A stretch of DNA of 64,000 bases from Solirubrobacterales bacterium (GCA_036794585.1 DAIRGH010000001.1:6964-70963), one strand, 5' to 3'. Positions 2,887 to 11,146 are shown, counted from the first letter of the stretch. Program-made: numbers and translations. The notes: generated by a model not told the origin, from the sequence alone.

Positions 2887-3017
2887 GTCAATAACCCCCC
2901 GCGCCTACGGGAAATGTCACCCCTCGCCCCGTGAGACTAGCGTCGATTTGGCCTCTGCGAGCCGGTAATTCGTCTAGCGCCAGCGTGCCTGCGGCTGCGG
3001 GTCCTATCCTGGCTCCG

Positions 3018-4727
3018 GTGCTGCGCAGGGCCCTCCTCGGATTCGTGATCTTCGCCTTCGCACCGGCCGCGGCGGCTGCCGCGACGCTGGAGCCGGTCGG
3101 CAGCTACGTGAGCCCGATGTTCGTCACCTCTGACCCGCACGATCCCGACCGGCTGTTCGTGGTCGAGCAGGAGGGCGAGATCGAGCTCACGACCCCCTCG
3201 GAGACGTCGACGTACCTCGACATCAAGAGCCTCGTCCTATCCGGCGGCGAGCGGGGGTTGCTCTCGGCGGCGTTTCCGGCCGATTACGACCAGACCGGCC
3301 TCTTCTACGCCTTCTACACGGGCAAGCCCGAGGGCAACATCCACATCGACGAGTTCCGCGCCTCGGGCAACACGGTCGATCCGGCGACCCGTCGCCCGGT
3401 GCTCACGATCGATCACGCCGCTTTCGGCAACCACAACGGCGGCCAGCTTCAGTTCGGTCCCGATGGCTTCCTCTACATCGCCACCGGCGACGGTGGCGGC
3501 AGTGGCGACGAGCTCGAGAACGCCCAGGACCTGACCTCGCTGCTCGGCAAGATCCTCCGCATCGACCCGCGCCAGGCCGGCGGCTCGCCCTACACGATCC
3601 CGCCCGGCAATCCCTTCGGCGACGAGATCTGGAGCTACGGGCTGCGCAACCCATGGCGCTTCTCCTTCGACCGCTCCACCGGCGACCTGCTGATCGGCGA
3701 CGTGGGCCAGGACGCGTGGGAAGAAGTGGACTACGTCCCCGAGTCCGCCGGCTGGGGCCAGGGCGCGAACTTCGGCTGGGACTGCCGCGAGGGCGCGCAC
3801 GAGTTCGAGCCCGCCGGGTGCGCGGGGCCGTTCACCGAGCCCGTGTTCGAGTACCCGAATGATCCCAGCGGCCCATCCTCGGTCACCGGTGGCTACGTCG
3901 TCCGCGACCCCGCCGTCGCCGATCTCTTCGGCCGCTACGTATATGCGGACGTCTATGCGGGGCCGGTCCGCTCCCTCGTTCCCGCGACGCCGGCAGCGAC
4001 AGACGACCGCGGCGAGGGGATCACGGTCCCCAACCCGTCGAGCTTCGGCGAGGACGCCTGCGGGCGCGTCTACGTCGCCTCGCTGGGCGGCGAGGTCTCA
4101 CGGTTCGCGGGCAGCGCCAGCATCGATTGCCTGACCCGGTCGCTATCGGTGCAGAACACGGGCATCGGCGCCGGCAGCGGCCGCGTGACCGGTCCGGGGA
4201 TCGACTGCCTCGGCGACTGTGGTCAGTCGTTCTTCGACGGACAACGGGTCCGGCTCTTCGCGCAGCCCGACGACGGATCTCGGTTCGTCGGCTGGGGCGG
4301 CGCCTGTGGCGGCACGGCGGGCTGCGCGCTCACGCTCTTCGCCGACCAGACCGTCAGCGCGCAGTTCGAGCGCAAGTTCGAGTCCGGCCTCGTGATCGAG
4401 GCCAAGCGCCGCCGCATTCGGCGGGGCGACAGGGTGCGGCTCGAGCTCCAGGCTGAGCCGTGCCCTGGTCGCGCGGGTGACGAGGTCGCGGTGAGCAAGC
4501 GTGGTAGGCAGCACTCCTTCCACGTCCTCGACCAGGACTGCAGCGCCCACTTCCGCATCCGACCACGGCGCACCGCGAGCTTCGGAGCGATGCTGAACAC
4601 CGACGAGCTGCACGAAGCCGGCGAAGCGACGCCGGTGAAGATCAAGGTTCGCCGCCGGCGCGCCGGCCGAACGGCCAACGGCGTCGACGCGGCCCCTGCT
4701 CGGGCGAAACAGGAGCAGGAAAGATGA
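3018..4727 (+). CDS. PQQ-dependent sugar (glucose/sorbosone-type) dehydrogenase with a C-terminal extension
   Basis: Beta-propeller family motifs are present: HNGGQLQFGPDGFLYIATGDGGG, LGKILRIDP, NPFGDEIWSYGLRNPWRFSFD and GDVGQDAWEEVD. The ORF opens at 2931, but a GTG at 3018 directly precedes a signal-like segment (VLRRALLGFVIFAFAPAAAAAA). The start is uncertain. Confidence 0.85.
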   Translation: MLRRALLGFVIFAFAPAAAAAATLEPVGSYVSPMFVTSDPHDPDRLFVVEQEGEIELTTPSETSTYLDIKSLVLSGGERGLLSAAFPADYDQTGLFYAFYTGKPEGNIHIDEFRASGNTVDPATRRPVLTIDHAAFGNHNGGQLQFGPDGFLYIATGDGGGSGDELENAQDLTSLLGKILRIDPRQAGGSPYTIPPGNPFGDEIWSYGLRNPWRFSFDRSTGDLLIGDVGQDAWEEVDYVPESAGWGQGANFGWDCREGAHEFEPAGCAGPFTEPVFEYPNDPSGPSSVTGGYVVRDPAVADLFGRYVYADVYAGPVRSLVPATPAATDDRGEGITVPNPSSFGEDACGRVYVASLGGEVSRFAGSASIDCLTRSLSVQNTGIGAGSGRVTGPGIDCLGDCGQSFFDGQRVRLFAQPDDGSRFVGWGGACGGTAGCALTLFADQTVSAQFERKFESGLVIEAKRRRIRRGDRVRLELQAEPCPGRAGDEVAVSKRGRQHSFHVLDQDCSAHFRIRPRRTASFGAMLNTDELHEAGEATPVKIKVRRRRAGRTANGVDAAPARAKQEQER

Positions 4728-5154
4728 TCGCGGCCTTTGGGTGATCAGCCGCCCCGTCTTCGGCGGGCCCGTCGGTTTCGGGCTCGACGATCTCGGTCCG
4801 CCGCCTCTCCAGCTCGGCGCGAAGGCGACTCACCTCTGCCTCGGCCTCCTCGCGGCGCCTCGTCTCCGCCGTCAGGTCGGCCTCGAGGGCCTCGATCTCC
4901 CCGACGACAAGCTGCTCGGCCTCGTCCCGTGCGGCTCTGGCGGCTTCGCCCACCCGCTCGGCGATCTCGTCCTCTGAAGCTGCCGATTCAGGCACGCCAT
5001 TGCCGGCGCTCGCGTTTGGCGCCTCAACTTTGGAAGCCGCAGGCTTGCGACGGGGTCGACCCCTACCCATGCGCCGCGATTTTACGGTGGATTGGAGTGG
5101 GAGAAGGGTTGGTTCGGTTGTCACACCCTGCGCCGAGTAGATTCTCGCGCTCAA
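4642..5154 (-). CDS. hypothetical coiled-coil protein
   Basis: A Glu/Ala/Arg heptad-like core (DEAEQLVVGEIEALEADLTAETRRREEAEAEVSRLRAELERRR) looks genuinely coding. The ends look less so. It overlaps the 3' end of the PQQ-dehydrogenase gene convergently by ~86 nt. The start may be the internal MGRGRPRR. Confidence 0.35.
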   Translation of the reverse strand: MSARIYSAQGVTTEPTLLPLQSTVKSRRMGRGRPRRKPAASKVEAPNASAGNGVPESAASEDEIAERVGEAARAARDEAEQLVVGEIEALEADLTAETRRREEAEAEVSRLRAELERRRTEIVEPETDGPAEDGAADHPKAAIIFPAPVSPEQGPRRRRWPFGRRAGGEP

Positions 5155-6296
5155 TGGATTTCTCGCTAACCGACGAACAACGAAATTTCGTCGAGGCGAT
5201 CCGCGACTTCTGCGCCCGCGAGTGTGGAACGCAGGAGCAGCGTGAGCGCCTGACCGGCGGCTACGAGCACGCCCACTCAGCCGAGATCTATAAGAAGATG
5301 GCCGACCTCGGCTGGCTCGGGGTGACCATCGACGAGGAGCACGGCGGCTCGGGCGGCGGCATGGTCGACGCCTGCTTGTTCATGGAGGAGACGGCGCGCG
5401 GGCTGGCGCCGATCGGCGGCTACGGCACGACGCTGATCGTCGCCGGCGCCGTGGAGCGCTTCGGCTCTGACGAACAGAAGCAGCGCATCCTCGGAGCCAT
5501 CGCCAAAGGCTCGGTCGAGGCGATCGCGATGACCGAGCCCGAGGCCGGCTCGGACGTGGGCTCGCTCACCACCAGCGCCGAGCGGGTCAACGGCGGCTAC
5601 GTGCTCAACGGCCAGAAGGTCTTCTGCTCCAACGCCCACATCTCCGACCACGTGCTGGTCGTCTGCCGCACCACCAAGGGCGAGTCAAAGCACGACGGCC
5701 TCTCGATGATCTTCATCCCCACCGACAACGGCCAGATGGAGATCAAGCCGATCGACACGATGGGCGGCCGCGAGACCAACTACCTCTACCTCTCCGACTG
5801 CGAGGCACCCGAGGACGCCGTGCTCGGCGAGGTCGACCAGGCCTGGATGCAGCTGATGGCCGGGCTCAACGTCGAGCGCCTGATCCTCGCCGCGATCCAG
5901 CTCGGCATCGGCCAGCGCGCCTTCGACGACACCCTCGCCTACGTCAAGGAGCGCCGCCAGTTCGGCCGCCCGATCGGCTCCTTTCAGGCCCTTCAGCACC
6001 GCCTCGCCGACATCGCCACCGAGCTCGAGGCGGCTCGCCTGATGACCTACTGGGTCGCCTCGAAGGTCGACGAGGACCCCAACCGCCTGCTGCCCCGCGA
6101 GGCCTCGATGGTCAAGCTCAAGGTGACCGAGACGGCGCAGAAGGCGTCACTGGAGGGAATGCAGATGCTCGGCGGCTACGGCTACTCCTCCGAGTACGAC
6201 ATGGAGCGCCTGGTCCGCCAGACCCTGGTCTCGACGATCTACGGCGGGACGTCAGAGATCCAGCGCAACATCATCGCCAAGACGTACGGGCTGTAG
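5154..6296 (+). CDS. acyl-CoA dehydrogenase
   Basis: MDFSLTDEQRNFVEAIRDF..., AIAMTEPEAGSDVGSL, and a C-terminal QMLGGYGYSSEYDMERLVRQTLVSTIYGGTSEIQRNIIAK are typical ACAD signatures. The start was moved to the ATG at 5154 because the 139 upstream codons of the track ORF are Arg/Pro-rich shadow sequence. Confidence 0.9.
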   Translation: MDFSLTDEQRNFVEAIRDFCARECGTQEQRERLTGGYEHAHSAEIYKKMADLGWLGVTIDEEHGGSGGGMVDACLFMEETARGLAPIGGYGTTLIVAGAVERFGSDEQKQRILGAIAKGSVEAIAMTEPEAGSDVGSLTTSAERVNGGYVLNGQKVFCSNAHISDHVLVVCRTTKGESKHDGLSMIFIPTDNGQMEIKPIDTMGGRETNYLYLSDCEAPEDAVLGEVDQAWMQLMAGLNVERLILAAIQLGIGQRAFDDTLAYVKERRQFGRPIGSFQALQHRLADIATELEAARLMTYWVASKVDEDPNRLLPREASMVKLKVTETAQKASLEGMQMLGGYGYSSEYDMERLVRQTLVSTIYGGTSEIQRNIIAKTYGL

Positions 6297-6302
6297 GCCG
6301 CG

Positions 6303-7466
6303 TTACGGGCGAGACGCGGTCTCGCGCGCCACTTCGGCCAGCGTGAAGTTGGGTTCCTGGTCGAAGTGACGCTGCAGCCGGCTGCGGAACACGTCGAGGC
6401 GGCGGACCGCCTCTGAATGGCGGTCCAGCATCAGACAGATGCGGAGCATCTCGCGCTGGACGTCGGCGTCGAGTGGCTCCATCTCGGCGAGGTCGCGGGC
6501 GTGCACGGCAGCCGCTTCGACATCCGATCGGCGCAGCTCGACCTGGACGAGGATGCGCAGCATCTGCGCGGCCAGCGAGCGCAGGCGATCGCGCTCGCGC
6601 TCGGCCCATTCGGCCGCGAGCTCGTCGGCGAGAAAGTCGCCGCGGTAGAGCGCGCGGCCCTGCAGCATCCATTCGCGGGCGGCTTCTTCGTTGCCACGGC
6701 GAAAGGCGCGCTTTCCCAGCTTGACTCGATGCTCGAACTCGTCTGCGTCGATCCACACGCCCTCCAGCGCGTAGCCTCCCTTGCGGGTGACCAGGTAGGC
6801 CGACGGGGCCCGTGGTGGTCGGTTCGGCTCGAGGTGGGCGCGCAGCTGATACACGGTCTGGCGCACCGCGCTTGCGCTCTCGACCCGCGCCGGCGACACC
6901 GACAGAGCCTCAGCGATCTGATCGGTCGAAACCGAGCGCAGCCGCTCCGTGACCAGATAGCGCAGCAGGGTGCCCGGGCGGTTGTTGATCCACGGTCCGA
7001 CAAGCGGCCCCTCCGGGCTCGTGACCTCGAGCCTGCCGAGCGTGGTGATCCGAAGCGCCGGGAGGTCGAAGAAGTCGACGGTCGACACCCGCCTGCGGTC
7101 CGACGCCGCGCCCGGGCGCAGCTGAAAGATGACAAGCGGCGGCCGCTCGCGGACCTTGAACGCCGCCACCCACGTCGCGACTGTCTTGCCGCTATCGCTG
7201 GTGAGGTCGATCCTCACCTCCTGGGGCGAGGTAACGCCCCTGAGCGCAACGTCGGTCAGGCACGCGCCGCCGAGCGCCTCGCGCGGCGCGCGGGCGCAGA
7301 TCAACTCACAGCACGTGGCGCCTCGGCCCCTCAACAGCTCGCGGCCGCGCGGGTTCGACGCGACCAGGCGGCGGTGCTGGTCGGCGACGACGAGCGCGAA
7401 CGGAAAGCCCTCGAAGACGCCTGACCACTCGCCCGAGTCGTGGATGATCCAGTCGCCCGTGCGCAA
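6303..7466 (-). CDS. SARP/AfsR-DnrI-type transcriptional regulator (winged-helix + BTAD) with an N-terminal Cys-rich PAS-like domain
   Basis: OmpR/SARP-like DNA-binding part (LRITTLGRLEVTSPEGPLVG..RPGTLLRYLVTERLRSVSTDQIAEAL..YLVTRKGGYAL). BTAD part (IDADEFEHRV..ALYRGDFLADE..AEWAERERDRLRSL). The N-terminal ~120 aa carry a CC-x3-C-x11-C motif (TCCELICARAPREALGGAC). Paralogue of 8945-10138. Confidence 0.8.
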   Translation of the reverse strand: MRTGDWIIHDSGEWSGVFEGFPFALVVADQHRRLVASNPRGRELLRGRGATCCELICARAPREALGGACLTDVALRGVTSPQEVRIDLTSDSGKTVATWVAAFKVRERPPLVIFQLRPGAASDRRRVSTVDFFDLPALRITTLGRLEVTSPEGPLVGPWINNRPGTLLRYLVTERLRSVSTDQIAEALSVSPARVESASAVRQTVYQLRAHLEPNRPPRAPSAYLVTRKGGYALEGVWIDADEFEHRVKLGKRAFRRGNEEAAREWMLQGRALYRGDFLADELAAEWAERERDRLRSLAAQMLRILVQVELRRSDVEAAAVHARDLAEMEPLDADVQREMLRICLMLDRHSEAVRRLDVFRSRLQRHFDQEPNFTLAEVARETASRP

Positions 7467-7519
7467 TGCAGCTCACGCCTACCTTAGCCTCACGCGGGCG
7501 TCGGCCGTGGCAGTTTGTG

Positions 7520-8056
7520 TTATCGCGGCAGCGTTCGTTCAGCCCGCGGTCTCGAGGCCGACCCACCGGCCTCATCACGACCGATCGGATTCGGCGTGCA
7601 GGCGCGAGCTGCCTTGGCGATCGCGGCGCTCAGCTCGGCTTTTACCTCCGCCGTCTCGAGCGCGAGGCGCTCGGCGATCTCGCTGTCCGACCAGCCCTTG
7701 GTCGCCAGGTGAAGGATCCGCCGCTCGCTGGCCGAGAGAGGGGCCGCCGGATCGTCTGCGCTCGCACCCGGGACGAAGCGGCCCGCGATGACCTCGCGGA
7801 TCGTCACCCCGAGCGCATCTTCCTCGCATTCGATGAATGTGACCGCGTCGCCGGGTGATGGCTGCAGAAGGATCACCCGCACCGGCGAGCTCGTCGTGTG
7901 CTTGCCATCCGAATCGGCAGCGTTTGCCGCGTCGTGAAGCTTGAACGCGTCGTAGATCTGCCCCCCGACCTCCGAGTCGCGGTCGACGATGGCAACCGTC
8001 AATCGCGCCTCGCGCGCAGGAGAATCCTCCCGATTCACGCTGACCGCTTCGACCAT
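7520..8056 (-). CDS. LuxR-type HTH protein with a degenerate receiver-like N-terminal part
   Basis: C-terminal LuxR/GerE-type HTH (LSASERRILHLATKGWSDSEIAERLALETAEVKAELSAAI). It lies 79 nt downstream of the ECF sigma gene on the same strand. The N-terminal domain could not be assigned. Confidence 0.65.
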   Translation of the reverse strand: MVEAVSVNREDSPAREARLTVAIVDRDSEVGGQIYDAFKLHDAANAADSDGKHTTSSPVRVILLQPSPGDAVTFIECEEDALGVTIREVIAGRFVPGASADDPAAPLSASERRILHLATKGWSDSEIAERLALETAEVKAELSAAIAKAARACTPNPIGRDEAGGSASRPRAERTLPR

Positions 8057-8134
8057 TGCGTGATCTACGGCTTGATGAGAGCCGTTCTTACATTTACGAC
8101 TTTAAAACCTCGCGCTGGACCTGGTCGCTAACCG

Positions 8135-8776
8135 TCAGCTGGCCGCGCCCATGGCCACCGGCGCCGAGTCGCGCATCAGGAGCTCTTCTCGCAATGCCCG
8201 GCGAGCGCGGTGATGCAGCGTGTGGATCGCGCCCTCGGTCTTGCCCATCTGCTGGGCGATCTCAGGCGGAGACATCCCGACGATGTGGCGCATCACCAGC
8301 ACGTGGCGCTGGCGCTGGGGCAGCGCGCGCAGCGCTTCCTTCAACGCGTCACGGCGCTCCATCGCCACGGTGTCGGGCTCGCCCGCGTCGGGGGCCACGA
8401 CTTCCTCGCAGTAGATCATCCGGTTACCGCGCAGATGGTCGATGGCGCAGTTGCGGGCGATTCGCAGCAGCCAGGCGACGAACGGGACCGACCTCTCCTG
8501 GTAGGTACTGATCTTGGTCAGCAGCTTCGCGAAGACGTGCTGGGTGACATCCTCTGCCGAGTGGTCGTCTTGCACGATCGTGCGCACGTAGCTGTAGACG
8601 TTGTCGGCGTAACGCTTGTAGAGCTCGTGAAGTGCCGCGCTGTCCCCGCGCTGCGCGGCGGCGATCACAAGCCGCAGTCGGGTGCGATCGACGGCACCCT
8701 CCTCGGCGAGCGACCTGCGAATTCTGAACACGGCAAGGTCGCCGTCTCGATCTTGGTTACTCGATAGTGGACTCAC
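8135..8776 (-). CDS. ECF-type RNA polymerase sigma-70 family factor
   Basis: Region 2 (AEDVTQHVFAKLLTKISTYQERSVPFVAWLLRIARNCAIDHLR) and region 4 (LPQRQRHVLVMRHIVGMSPPEIAQQMGKTEGAIHTLHHRARRALR) are both present. Confidence 0.85.
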   Translation of the reverse strand: MSPLSSNQDRDGDLAVFRIRRSLAEEGAVDRTRLRLVIAAAQRGDSAALHELYKRYADNVYSYVRTIVQDDHSAEDVTQHVFAKLLTKISTYQERSVPFVAWLLRIARNCAIDHLRGNRMIYCEEVVAPDAGEPDTVAMERRDALKEALRALPQRQRHVLVMRHIVGMSPPEIAQQMGKTEGAIHTLHHRARRALREELLMRDSAPVAMGAAS

Positions 8777-8944
8777 CCTAACCTCCGTGCGGGCCGAGCG
8801 TCATGCTCAGCGAGGTGGCGCACCATAGAGTCGCTGTGTTAGATGGTGGTGAATAATCGCGTTAGCTGGTAGTTTGGCTGCAGAGACCGGCCTGTCCATT
8901 CGTCTAGTCTTCTGTGTCGCAGGGGGCAGGTCAGTTCGCGGCTT

Positions 8945-10138
8945 ATGGCGGGATCCGCACCCAAACCACACCCCGAACACAGCGCGCCCGCCGCGGCCGG
9001 CGCCGCGTCGGCTCGTGAGCTCTTCTCCGGCTTTCCCTATGGGCTCTTCACTGTTGACGGCGGTAGCCGGGTGATCACGATGAACGATGCCTGTCGTGAG
9101 CTGCTCGTCAGACAGCCCATGCCCGTAAGCCGGCCCGTCACCTGCTGTGAGCTCGTTTGCGAATGGACGGCCGATGAAGGAGTTGCCGGGTGCCTCGGCG
9201 AGAGAGCGCGGGCGCTGGGCCGGCCGCTTCCCGAGGTGCGGATCGATCTCGCTGCGGGCGGACCCCGCAGCGCGGCGTGGGTGACGGTCGCACCGCTGAA
9301 TCGCGAGGGCCACACCGTCTTTCACCTCCGCCCCGGCCATGCGCGCGATCGGCGGCGGCGGTCGCGCGCTCAGGGGCCGGCCGCTCCGCCGCTTCGCGTC
9401 TTCGTGCTCGGGCAGACCCGGATCGAAACGGAGATCGCCGACAGCTCGGATCGCGAGTGGATCGACCAGCGCCCGGGCGAGCTGCTCAAGTACCTCGTCT
9501 GCGCCGGCGCCAAGCCTGTGTCCGCGAACGAGATCATCACTGCCCTGTGGCCAGCGGGTTCGAACACGGGCACGGGCGCCGTGCGCTACATCGTGCACGC
9601 CCTGCGCAACCAGCTCGAGCCGGCGCGCGAGTCGGGTTCGCCGTCATCGTTCATCGGCTCTGACCCGGCCGGCTATCACTTGATCCTCGAGCACGTCTGG
9701 GTCGACGCATCCGAGTTCGAGCAACTCGTTAACGGGGGCCTGACCGCGCTCGCCGCTGGGAAGCAGGCCGTCGCCCTGGACCAGCTCGAGCGGGCGATCG
9801 CCCTCTACCGCGGCGACCTCCTCGAAGACGAGCCCTACGCGGAATGGGCGTTTCACGAGCGAGAGCGGCTGAAGGAGCTATGTGGTCGCGCTCTACGCGC
9901 GACGACTGAGCTCCGGCTTGCGGCCAGCCCGGCCGACGAGGAGACCGTCGCCTACAGCCGCAGGCTCGCCGACCTCGAGCTCTACGACACAGACGCCCAG
10001 CGCCGCCACCTGGAGATCTGCATCCGCCACGGTCGCCGCAGCGAGGCCGTTCGCCGCTACGAGCTGTATCAGCGGCGGATGTTGAGAGAGTTCGGCCAGG
10101 AGCCGCCGTTCACCTTGGCCGACCTCGATCGCGCCTGA
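8945..10138 (+). CDS. SARP/AfsR-DnrI-type transcriptional regulator (winged-helix + BTAD) with an N-terminal Cys-rich PAS-like domain
   Basis: Same architecture as 6303-7466. The N-terminus carries TCCELVCEWTADEGVAGC. The winged helix is LRVFVLGQTRIET..RPGELLKYLVCAGAKPVSANEIITALW. The BTAD is VDASEFEQLV..ALYRGDLLEDEPYAEWAFHERERLKEL. Confidence 0.8.
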   Translation: MAGSAPKPHPEHSAPAAAGAASARELFSGFPYGLFTVDGGSRVITMNDACRELLVRQPMPVSRPVTCCELVCEWTADEGVAGCLGERARALGRPLPEVRIDLAAGGPRSAAWVTVAPLNREGHTVFHLRPGHARDRRRRSRAQGPAAPPLRVFVLGQTRIETEIADSSDREWIDQRPGELLKYLVCAGAKPVSANEIITALWPAGSNTGTGAVRYIVHALRNQLEPARESGSPSSFIGSDPAGYHLILEHVWVDASEFEQLVNGGLTALAAGKQAVALDQLERAIALYRGDLLEDEPYAEWAFHERERLKELCGRALRATTELRLAASPADEETVAYSRRLADLELYDTDAQRRHLEICIRHGRRSEAVRRYELYQRRMLREFGQEPPFTLADLDRA

Positions 10139-10147
10139 CGGGCGCCC

Positions 10148-11146
10148 TTATTGAGACGGACAGCGGGTCGACTTCGTCAGCTCGCCCGCGACGCAGCGAT
10201 CAATCCGCTTCGGCGGCTTGTCGTTACGCATAGAGAAGCGCGTGAACTTGCCCGTCACGTCCGGCTTGGTGATGTAGAGCCTGAGCTTTGTGCCCGGCGC
10301 CAGCGCTCTCTCGAAGCCGCCGAACCTCACGGTCGGCGCCGAGGCCGTCGCCTCGCGACTGTCAAACGAGCAGCTCTTGCCGCTGCACGTAAGCGTCAGG
10401 TTCGCACCCTTCGGCGCCCTTGCGGTGAGCCGCTTGATCGAGGTCTTTCCGTTCGGCTTCACCTCGCTGCCCAGCCGGACCACTGGGAACGGGCTCATCA
10501 GCGGCAGCGATGCGTCGTCGACGTCGATCTGGCGCCGGAGCACGTCGCTGGTGCCGTTGGCGTCGCGGACCCTGAGTGCGATCGCGTACCGGGCTGCCTG
10601 CGGAAAGATCGTCTCAGCCTGGGCACCGCTGGCGTCGTCGAAGTCTCCATCCTCGTCGAGGTCCCAGTCTTGCTCGACGATCGGCCCGTCCGGGTCCGAT
10701 GAGATCGACGTGAAGCTCACGCTCTCGCCGACCCGTGGCGACTCAGGGCTGATGACGAAGTCGGCGACCGGCCGGCGGTTGGCGATCTCGATCACCTGCT
10801 CGGTGGTCGCGGATCCACCTCCGGAGGAGGTGACGAGCAGGCGGACCGTCCGCGGTCCCGGGGTTGGGTAGGTGAAGCTCGCGGTCGAGCCCGTGGCGTC
10901 GTCGTACTGCCCATCGCCATCGAGATCCCAGCTCCATCCCGTAATCGTCTCGCCGGCGGGCGCCGCCGAGCCGGAGCCGTCGTAGCTCACGGTCTCGCCG
11001 CTCTTCGGCGCTGGCGGCGAGAAGGTGAAGCTCGCCGTCGGCGGGTCGGCCGCAAACGCCGCCGAAGCGCAAACCCCGAGCACGACAACCGCCACCACCA
11101 CTGCCGCCAGCCGCGAGGCCTGAACCGTCACCTGCCCACTCCTCAT
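10148..11146 (-). CDS. secreted PKD-repeat protein with a C-terminal Cys4 domain (paralogue of 1324-2886)
   Basis: Signal-like N-terminus (AAVVVAVVVLGVCASAAFA). Two PKD repeats (VSYDGSGSAAP..WSWDLDGDGQYDD; FTSISSDPDGPIVEQDWDLDEDGDFDD). The C-terminal domain LPLMSPFPVVRLGSEVKPNG...TCSGKSCSF...DRCVAGELTKSTRCPSQ aligns with the C-terminus of the 520-aa protein. Confidence 0.85.
   Translation of the reverse strand: MRSGQVTVQASRLAAVVVAVVVLGVCASAAFAADPPTASFTFSPPAPKSGETVSYDGSGSAAPAGETITGWSWDLDGDGQYDDATGSTASFTYPTPGPRTVRLLVTSSGGGSATTEQVIEIANRRPVADFVISPESPRVGESVSFTSISSDPDGPIVEQDWDLDEDGDFDDASGAQAETIFPQAARYAIALRVRDANGTSDVLRRQIDVDDASLPLMSPFPVVRLGSEVKPNGKTSIKRLTARAPKGANLTLTCSGKSCSFDSREATASAPTVRFGGFERALAPGTKLRLYITKPDVTGKFTRFSMRNDKPPKRIDRCVAGELTKSTRCPSQ

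Follow-up and report, generated by a model that had tools for sequence, protein, structure and literature searches.

Here we analyse by computation a 64,000-nucleotide stretch of DNA from a Solirubrobacterales bacterium (GCA_036794585.1 DAIRGH010000001.1:6964-70963), called the window throughout, in which two paralogous regulators of the SARP superfamily, SARP1 and SARP2, flank a gene for a sigma factor of the extracytoplasmic function (ECF) type and a gene for a LuxR-like protein. To our knowledge, SARPs are among the best-studied activators of actinobacteria, the signal input of the 'small' SARPs is largely unknown, and the superfamily has been tied almost entirely to antibiotic clusters. 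In both regulators the SARP module follows a predicted PAS domain with four conserved cysteines, and a putative SARP operator lies in front of the sigma factor gene. We propose that these elements may form a signal-responsive cascade.

Two SARP paralogues around an ECF sigma factor gene

The genes of the locus are listed here, with positions counted from the first nucleotide of the window.

6303-7466, minus strand: SARP1 (P0001), 387 aa from a TTG start; predicted PAS domain, winged helix and BTAD
7520-8056, minus strand: LuxR/GerE-type helix-turn-helix (HTH) protein, 178 aa
8135-8776, minus strand: ECF-type sigma factor, 213 aa from a GTG start, divergent from SARP2
8945-10138, plus strand: SARP2 (P0002), 397 aa; predicted PAS domain (residues 16-131), DRRRR linker (135-139), winged-helix DNA-binding domain (about 150-253) and BTAD (253-396)
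8990-9361, plus strand: PAS domain and DRRRR linker of SARP2, as placed by the AlphaFold2 model, fold matches and matches of the family to PAS profiles

The two regulators are 40% identical end to end (E 7e-68), and both end in the output module of SARPs, a winged helix followed by BTAD, as a first-pass annotation of this DNA had read from their sequences. The full BTAD profile (PF03704) is covered directly C-terminal to the DNA-binding domain (E 8.7e-15 in P0001 and 3.8e-19 in P0002), the OmpR-type winged-helix profile Trans_reg_C matches both proteins (E 1.3e-5 and 2e-5, 25 bits against a Pfam cut-off of 26.2), and EmbR is matched by sequence too (E 6.8e-5). In the full-length model of SARP2 (pLDDT 89, with a flexible, low-confidence linker at residues 140-145), the C-terminal 250 residues match the structures of AfsR (8K60 and 8HVR; E 1.5e-10, TMt 0.71, 25% identity) and EmbR (2FEZ). 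The order of OmpR-type winged helix and BTAD is thus that of the small SARPs, of AfsR from Streptomyces and of EmbR from Mycobacterium.

What differs is the part ahead of this module. In known SARPs the DNA-binding domain comes first and extra domains, such as NB-ARC/NOD, TPR, FHA or LuxR, are C-terminal (PMC10972967, PMC10936776); the superfamily is divided into small, medium and large classes, and no N-terminal sensor of the type described here is found among them (PMC10972967). Both proteins of the window have about 125-145 extra residues before the SARP module, about 145 of them in SARP2, where they correspond to the PAS domain and the linker. Neither protein therefore has its DNA-binding domain at the N-terminus, as all three classes do, because PAS domain and linker precede it. 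We regard this PAS-first arrangement as a new domain order and not as a ground for exclusion from the superfamily.

SARP1 and SARP2 lie on separate deep branches of the family tree, and the closest relative (L003) has a separate orthologue of each; we therefore rejected a recent duplication and consider the two genes old paralogues. L003 has the same layout, and the N-terminal domains of its SARP2 and SARP1 orthologues are 61% and 48% identical to those of the window, the SARP1 orthologue being split, probably by an assembly frameshift. In the long-contig metagenome assemblies of the relatives, genes are broken into adjacent short open reading frames (L003 4029-5214 and 10932-11601; L004 7114-7807). 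The genes concerned, namely the SARP1 orthologue, an epimerase gene and a sigma gene, look like products of indel errors and not like pseudogenes.

The earlier proposal that the two SARPs bracket an ECF sigma factor and a LuxR-type gene also agrees with our searches, the two genes differing in the strength of their matches. The sigma factor matches Sigma70_r2 (E 8e-19), Sigma70_r4_2 (E 6.4e-16) and Sigma70_ECF (E 5e-5), scores 107.5 bits with TIGR02937 against a cut-off of 42.9, and has sigma-70 regions 2 and 4 only, which defines an ECF sigma factor. The GerE match of the LuxR-like protein is weak and below the cut-off (E 9.5e-4, 19.2 bits against 23.5); its HTH part is 44% identical over 82 residues to the GerE-annotated orthologue of L003. 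The sigma, LuxR-like and SARP1 genes all lie on the minus strand with gaps of 78 and 53 nt, and 168 nt separate the sigma gene from SARP2. Because of these small gaps and the common strand, the three genes look like a single putative operon with SARP1 as its last gene.

Some further features of the two genes between the SARPs were observed. In the sigma factor about 45 additional N-terminal residues precede region 2; its best specific NCBIfam match is the BldN family (114 bits against a cut-off of 206), and no anti-sigma-like gene follows it. The N-terminal half of the LuxR-like protein opens like a degenerate receiver (VAIVDRD...), with no match to Response_reg, and the protein may be an atypical orphan regulator of the NarL type.

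The PAS domain and its conserved cysteines

The N-terminal domain defines a small family confined, in our samples, to one order. An exhaustive HMMER search of 1.8 billion representative proteins returned 118 clusters, which are SARP fusions or fragments except for two (P0177 and P0233), rejected as low-complexity, repetitive false positives; the domain was found solely as a fusion to SARP modules. Among 301 genomes sampled within this order, 32 carry it (in 21 of 81 genera), mostly as one copy each; about 385 genomes sampled elsewhere in the phylum gave no instance. Named source records assign the carriers to Solirubrobacterales. The assembly from which the window derives (3.08 Mb, 204 contigs) has two copies, which are the two genes of the window.

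The AlphaFold2 model of the domain, built on a 118-sequence alignment (pLDDT 83, pTM 0.79), consists of an N-cap helix, five strands and three helices, that is, a PAS topology. When it was compared with the Protein Data Bank (PDB) by Foldseek, the best 50 matches were all PAS domains (E from 6e-5, TM 0.5-0.6, 11-22% identity), among them PYP, NifL, LOV and heme PAS domains and TyrR. Within the family, PAS_8 is matched by 75 of 118 N-terminal domains (best E 1.7e-8) and PAS_4 by 50 of 118, and a language-model search with the domain retrieved PAS clusters exclusively. The first-pass annotation had called the opening of both proteins PAS-like; since the top 50 fold matches are all PAS domains at low identity, the model identifies the domain as a divergent PAS domain with no close solved relative.

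The cysteines lie at the following positions.

9143-9193, plus strand: cysteine motif of SARP2, C67, C68, C72 and C83 (CC-x3-C-x10-C)
7260-7313, minus strand: cysteine motif of SARP1, C52, C53, C57 and C69 (CC-x3-C-x11-C)

Loss of these cysteines among orthologues had been named in advance as one observation that would overturn the proposal of a four-cysteine sensor, and it was not seen. In a word search each of the four is 97-100% conserved among the 118 homologues, 84 of which have the commonest spacing, CC-x3-C-x10-C. Among representative clusters at 50% identity that cover the motif (n=111), all four cysteines are present in 86 and three or more in 108. Almost no cluster lacks the third or the fourth cysteine; the variable position is one member of the CC pair, where the substitute is most often His (5 clusters), and a Cys-Asp pair is found in three sequences. 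Judged from the alignment, three near-invariant cysteines and a fourth position at which His or Asp can stand (a 3+1 pattern) have the look of a ligand set. In the SARP2 model C67, C68 and C72 start helix 67-76 and C83 stands just ahead of helix 84-91 (pLDDT 77-92 in this part), which in the modelled fold is the E-alpha/F-alpha helical wall of the PAS pocket. Besides the cysteines, N47, R51, E97-x-R99-x-D101 (on one strand face), W112, H127 and the DRRRR linker are invariant. As a speculation, the switch between the sensor and the DNA-binding module may be formed by the arginine linker together with the acidic face of the strand.

From its conservation pattern the cysteine site is likely to be a metal or cluster centre, and by analogy with known sensors an iron-sulfur (Fe-S) cluster is the leading candidate, although Zn, Cu or a thiol switch would be compatible with the site equally well. 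The PAS domain of NreB holds a [4Fe-4S] cluster in Staphylococcus and a [2Fe-2S] cluster in Bacillus licheniformis (PDB 9WEX), in the latter bound by C63, C66 and C78 together with a labile sulfur, C78 being located just before alpha2 (PMC13478379). In OrpR from Desulfovibrio vulgaris, a sigma-54 activator, C52, C61 and C65 of the PAS domain hold a [4Fe-4S] cluster (PMC8359166). By sequence position, the Fe-S cysteines of both proteins are on the same E-alpha/F-alpha segment (PMC13478379, PMC8359166). The NreB structure 9WEX was absent from the fold matches of our model, which were drawn from a PDB copy ending on 2026-04-08, earlier than its publication.

As in NreB, the PAS domain studied here has three or four cysteines between strand 2 and strand 3, the last of them directly ahead of a short helix; C68 and C83, the second and the last, span 15 residues, as do C63 and C78 of NreB, and the 3+1 conservation resembles the three cysteines and variable fourth ligand of the B. 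licheniformis protein. In contrast to NreB, the first three cysteines are modelled on a helix and the output is a DNA-binding activator and not a histidine kinase; there is no detectable sequence similarity, and the cofactor is a candidate proposed from sequence. With OrpR the family shares the plan of a one-component activator with an N-terminal PAS domain and three conserved cysteines, which in OrpR serve a redox-sensing cluster that gates the output. OrpR differs in its AAA+ sigma-54 enhancer-binding output, in the spacing of its cysteines and in its anaerobic host, and no sequence relationship to it emerged.

We have considered that the cysteines could instead form a structural site for zinc or another metal that stabilises or dimerises the PAS domain without sensing, the activator being constitutive or otherwise regulated. 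Three cysteines with a fourth Cys or His are typical of zinc sites too, the hosts appear to live aerobically in soil, where O2-labile clusters would not be stable, and a dimerising N-terminal domain would be useful to SARPs, which act as side-by-side dimers on direct repeats (PMC10936776). However, the cysteines are placed by the model on the helices that form the PAS pocket and not in a knuckle or ribbon, the full PAS fold is kept together with the further invariant residues N47, E97, R99, D101, W112 and H127, and a PAS domain placed N-terminal to a DNA-binding module usually has a sensory role. We consider a purely structural site unlikely.

A second alternative is a metal-free thiol/disulfide switch, in which oxidation would produce intra- or intermolecular disulfides that change the conformation of the PAS domain and the activity of the SARP. 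Thiol-based switches are known in PAS-containing regulators, and conserved, clustered cysteines are what such a switch would need. On the other hand, a vicinal CC pair and two further invariant cysteines, where one position also accepts His or Asp, point more typically to a ligand set than to disulfide pairs, and three of the four cysteines are within six residues on one helix. A switch of this kind appears quite improbable to us, and a metal or cluster centre is the reading that we carry forward.

A putative operator and the genes beside it

The elements found between the sigma gene and SARP2 are these.

8838-8876, minus strand: putative SARP operator of four pentamer units with a period of 11-12 bp; read toward the sigma gene, CAAAC (8876-8872), CTAAC (8865-8861), TTCAC (8853-8849) and CTAAC (8842-8838)
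8822-8827, minus strand: -10-like hexamer TATGGT, 10 nt past the last pentamer, with about 45 nt left to the start codon of the sigma gene
8782-8786, minus strand: GGAGG, ribosome-binding site of the sigma gene

Throughout the family, the intergenic regions contain RTTWG pentamers in direct repeat, 11-12 bp apart, and periodic GTTAG was observed in 8 loci where 0.02 would be expected. Reading toward the divergent gene, 10 of 17 loci have a TAnnnT hexamer 10 or 21 nt past the last clear pentamer (exactly 21 nt in eight, 10 nt in the window and L003); in the reverse direction, toward the SARP gene, one of the 17 has such a hexamer, at another offset. When the ten loci are aligned on the hexamer, the array reads CTAAT, CTAAC, CTAAC, CAAAC and then, 10 nt later, TAnnTT/G. 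No sigma-70-type pair of -35 and -10 elements was found in the intergenic region of the window, and the site at 8838-8876 has no second instance in the window or elsewhere in the 3.08 Mb assembly.

In SARP promoters the repeats recur every 11 or 22 bp, 8 bp separate the 3' repeat from the -10 element, and the -35 element is replaced (PMC10936776, PMC10972967). The period of the repeats found here and their distance to the -10 agree in silico with this rule, in the window and in at least 10 related loci, 10 nt from the pentamer being equal to 8 bp for a heptamer unit. On this comparison of motifs, the intergenic array with its -10 hexamer has the layout of a classic SARP promoter, with candidate direct repeats one helical turn apart, a SARP-typical distance to the -10 and no -35. 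The repeat core differs from that of known SARPs in being CTAAY. Between the array and the start codon of SARP2, an identical 12-mer, CCTGTCCATTCG, is found at 8891-8902 of the window and at 7943-7954 of L003; it may be part of SARP2's own promoter or leader.

It could be argued that the CTAAY array is not a SARP operator and is bound by the LuxR-type protein or by the sigma factor itself, or that it solely autoregulates the SARP gene. The repeats were found by computation only, GerE genes co-occur, and in some loci (L006 and L047) the repeats are immediately upstream of, or over, the ribosome-binding site of the SARP gene. Against this, the array is kept in SARP loci that have no sigma or GerE gene (L006, L007 and L039), and its spacing, both within the array and to the -10, is that of the SARP rule. 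Inverted repeats are the typical sites of LuxR-type proteins, and promoters of ECF sigma factors are bipartite and not tandem arrays of 11 bp. We regard recognition by another factor, or a solely autoregulatory role, as highly unlikely, and the most economical reading of the sequences would be that the PAS-SARP activates the sigma-LuxR-SARP1 operon.

The comparison of loci places the family beside two kinds of genes. The nearest upstream gene is divergent in 33 of 37 family loci, and in 15 of these 33 it encodes an ECF sigma factor (with about 40-67% identity to the window's sigma factor where the alignment is good), beside which GerE genes recur. The remaining divergent neighbours are mostly glycan enzymes: glycosyltransferase family 2 (GT2) synthases, DegT aminotransferases, UDP-glucose dehydrogenase, GT4 enzymes and an Agd3-type deacetylase. 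The seven loci with precomputed annotation have the same sigma/glycan context gene by gene. In the tree, the sigma-partnered loci are widely scattered, and one sigma-less clade lies directly beside GT2/epimerase/deacetylase operons. The module of the window itself is located at the edge of a large glycan island, and the comparative context gives substance to the link with glycan genes that had been raised as a possibility in the first reading.

In four sigma-less loci (L005, L008, L009 and L039) the SARP gene is divergent from an operon with a large processive GT2 resembling chitin, cellulose or poly-N-acetylglucosamine synthases, which also codes for polysaccharide deacetylases and for either an epimerase or a UDP-glucose dehydrogenase. 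The operon is a candidate system for a secreted, deacetylated polysaccharide.

The surface proteins with PKD domains, to which the first-pass annotation had tied both regulators, are a different case. Its statement that each regulator adjoins a PKD operon applies to SARP2, whose 3' end is 10 nt from that of a convergent PKD gene (10148-11146), but not to SARP1, whose immediate neighbour is the acyl-CoA dehydrogenase gene at 4737-6296 and from which the other PKD gene (1324-2886) is 3.4 kb distant. Direct control of the PKD operons, as then suggested, finds no support, since the sole operator-like site of window and assembly lies ahead of the sigma gene. Two genes in this part, both on the plus strand, encode proteins with extra regions: the acyl-CoA dehydrogenase has 144 extra residues without a Pfam match before Acyl-CoA_dh_N, and the product of 2931-4727 is a beta-propeller of the glucose/sorbosone dehydrogenase type with a divergent InlB B-repeat at its C-terminus (Pfam Flg_new_2, E 1.5e-7).

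A proposed sensor-to-sigma cascade

We propose that SARP1 and SARP2 are one-component, signal-responsive SARP activators. Their PAS site would consist of three near-invariant cysteines and a fourth ligand, usually the second cysteine of the CC pair and sometimes His, and would most likely hold a metal centre; the PAS domain would be coupled through the DRRRR linker to the AfsR/EmbR-type module. When active, this module may bind three or four CTAAY pentamers, one helical turn apart, which would stand in for the -35 element at one SARP-typical distance upstream of the TAnnnT -10, so that the regulator could recruit the housekeeping RNA polymerase to the divergent gene. In this way a redox or metal signal received by SARP2 would lead to production of both an alternative sigma factor and the paralogue SARP1, a cascade with feed-forward, and further promoters, probably those of the adjacent surface-glycan island, would be the targets of the sigma factor. 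The parts of this scheme that we infer are binding to DNA, a positive and not a negative effect on transcription, the identity of cofactor and signal, and the sigma regulon. Taken as a whole, the explanation by cysteine-PAS-gated SARP activators, a CTAAY operator and a sigma cascade has our moderate confidence. More tentative, and to be taken as a possibility, is its fullest form, namely that an as yet undescribed Fe-S/metal PAS class of one actinobacterial order directly gates a SARP activator of the 'sigma-adaptation' type whose main target is the promoter of an ECF sigma factor without an anti-sigma partner, giving a two-tier redox/metal cascade from SARP through ECF sigma to surface glycan or exopolysaccharide genes, with the second paralogue as feed-forward.

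Several observations weigh against this proposal. Regarding the sensor, the PAS matches of the two proteins of the window are themselves below the Pfam threshold (E 0.009-0.09), a profile search of PDB sequences with the domain gave weak N-cap PAS matches and no similarity to NreB or any Fe-S PAS domain, and the spacing CC-x3-C-x10 is unlike the C-x2-C-x11-C(-x2-C) of NreB. Regarding the promoter, the promoter-proximal repeat unit is degenerate, and the distance estimates use start codons from a crude gene caller. On the other strand the repeats read toward the SARP gene and in some loci overlap its ribosome-binding site, so autorepression or a dual role is possible; autorepression may have been added in some relatives. 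The recognition helix of SARP1 is unlike that of SARP2, and a search of the window with TTGSR units found no SARP1-specific repeat. As for the second tier, no shared ECF-type bipartite promoter was found in 148 upstream regions of 17 sigma-bearing loci, in which GC-rich pairs did no better than shuffles.

The TTGSR units were taken from the locus of SARP1's nearest relative (L061, genome G023), where the upstream tandem unit is different, of the TTGCG/TTGGA type with a period of about 11 bp. It is a hint that another repeat is recognised in the SARP1 branch.

The closest arrangement among characterised systems is found in polyene biosynthesis, where PimR, a SARP-LAL protein, acts on PimM, a PAS-LuxR protein, in a cascade in which the SARP binds heptameric direct repeats before the gene of the second regulator (PMC10972967). 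Similarly, the putative SARP site of the window lies before a second regulator gene, and in the PimR-PimM pair it is this second regulator that then drives the structural genes. The PAS domain is on the LuxR protein there and on the SARP here, and while PimR-PimM has no sigma factor as its second tier, that tier here is an ECF sigma factor with a LuxR-like protein. Compared with known SARPs in general, the putative targets are a sigma gene and glycan operons and not antibiotic clusters, and the host order is outside the genera in which SARPs have classically been studied. Full-text literature searches returned no PAS-SARP, no SARP with a cysteine or Fe-S site and no pairing of a SARP with an ECF sigma factor, and a sensor-to-sigma cascade beside cell-surface glycan genes appears to be previously undescribed.

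What would such a system mean for these bacteria? If the proposal is true, the family would be a case of a SARP with a built-in sensor, it would extend the use of SARPs beyond secondary metabolism to envelope glycans, and its ECF sigma factor would be controlled through its own transcription by a SARP and not by an anti-sigma factor. With one operator per genome and a defined -10 hexamer, it is also a compact, testable system. If the site binds Fe-S, it would be the third independent cysteine arrangement among Fe-S PAS sensors, beside those of NreB and OrpR. The family would also offer a first handle on environmental regulation in Solirubrobacterales-like lineages, which are poorly studied and abundant in soil.

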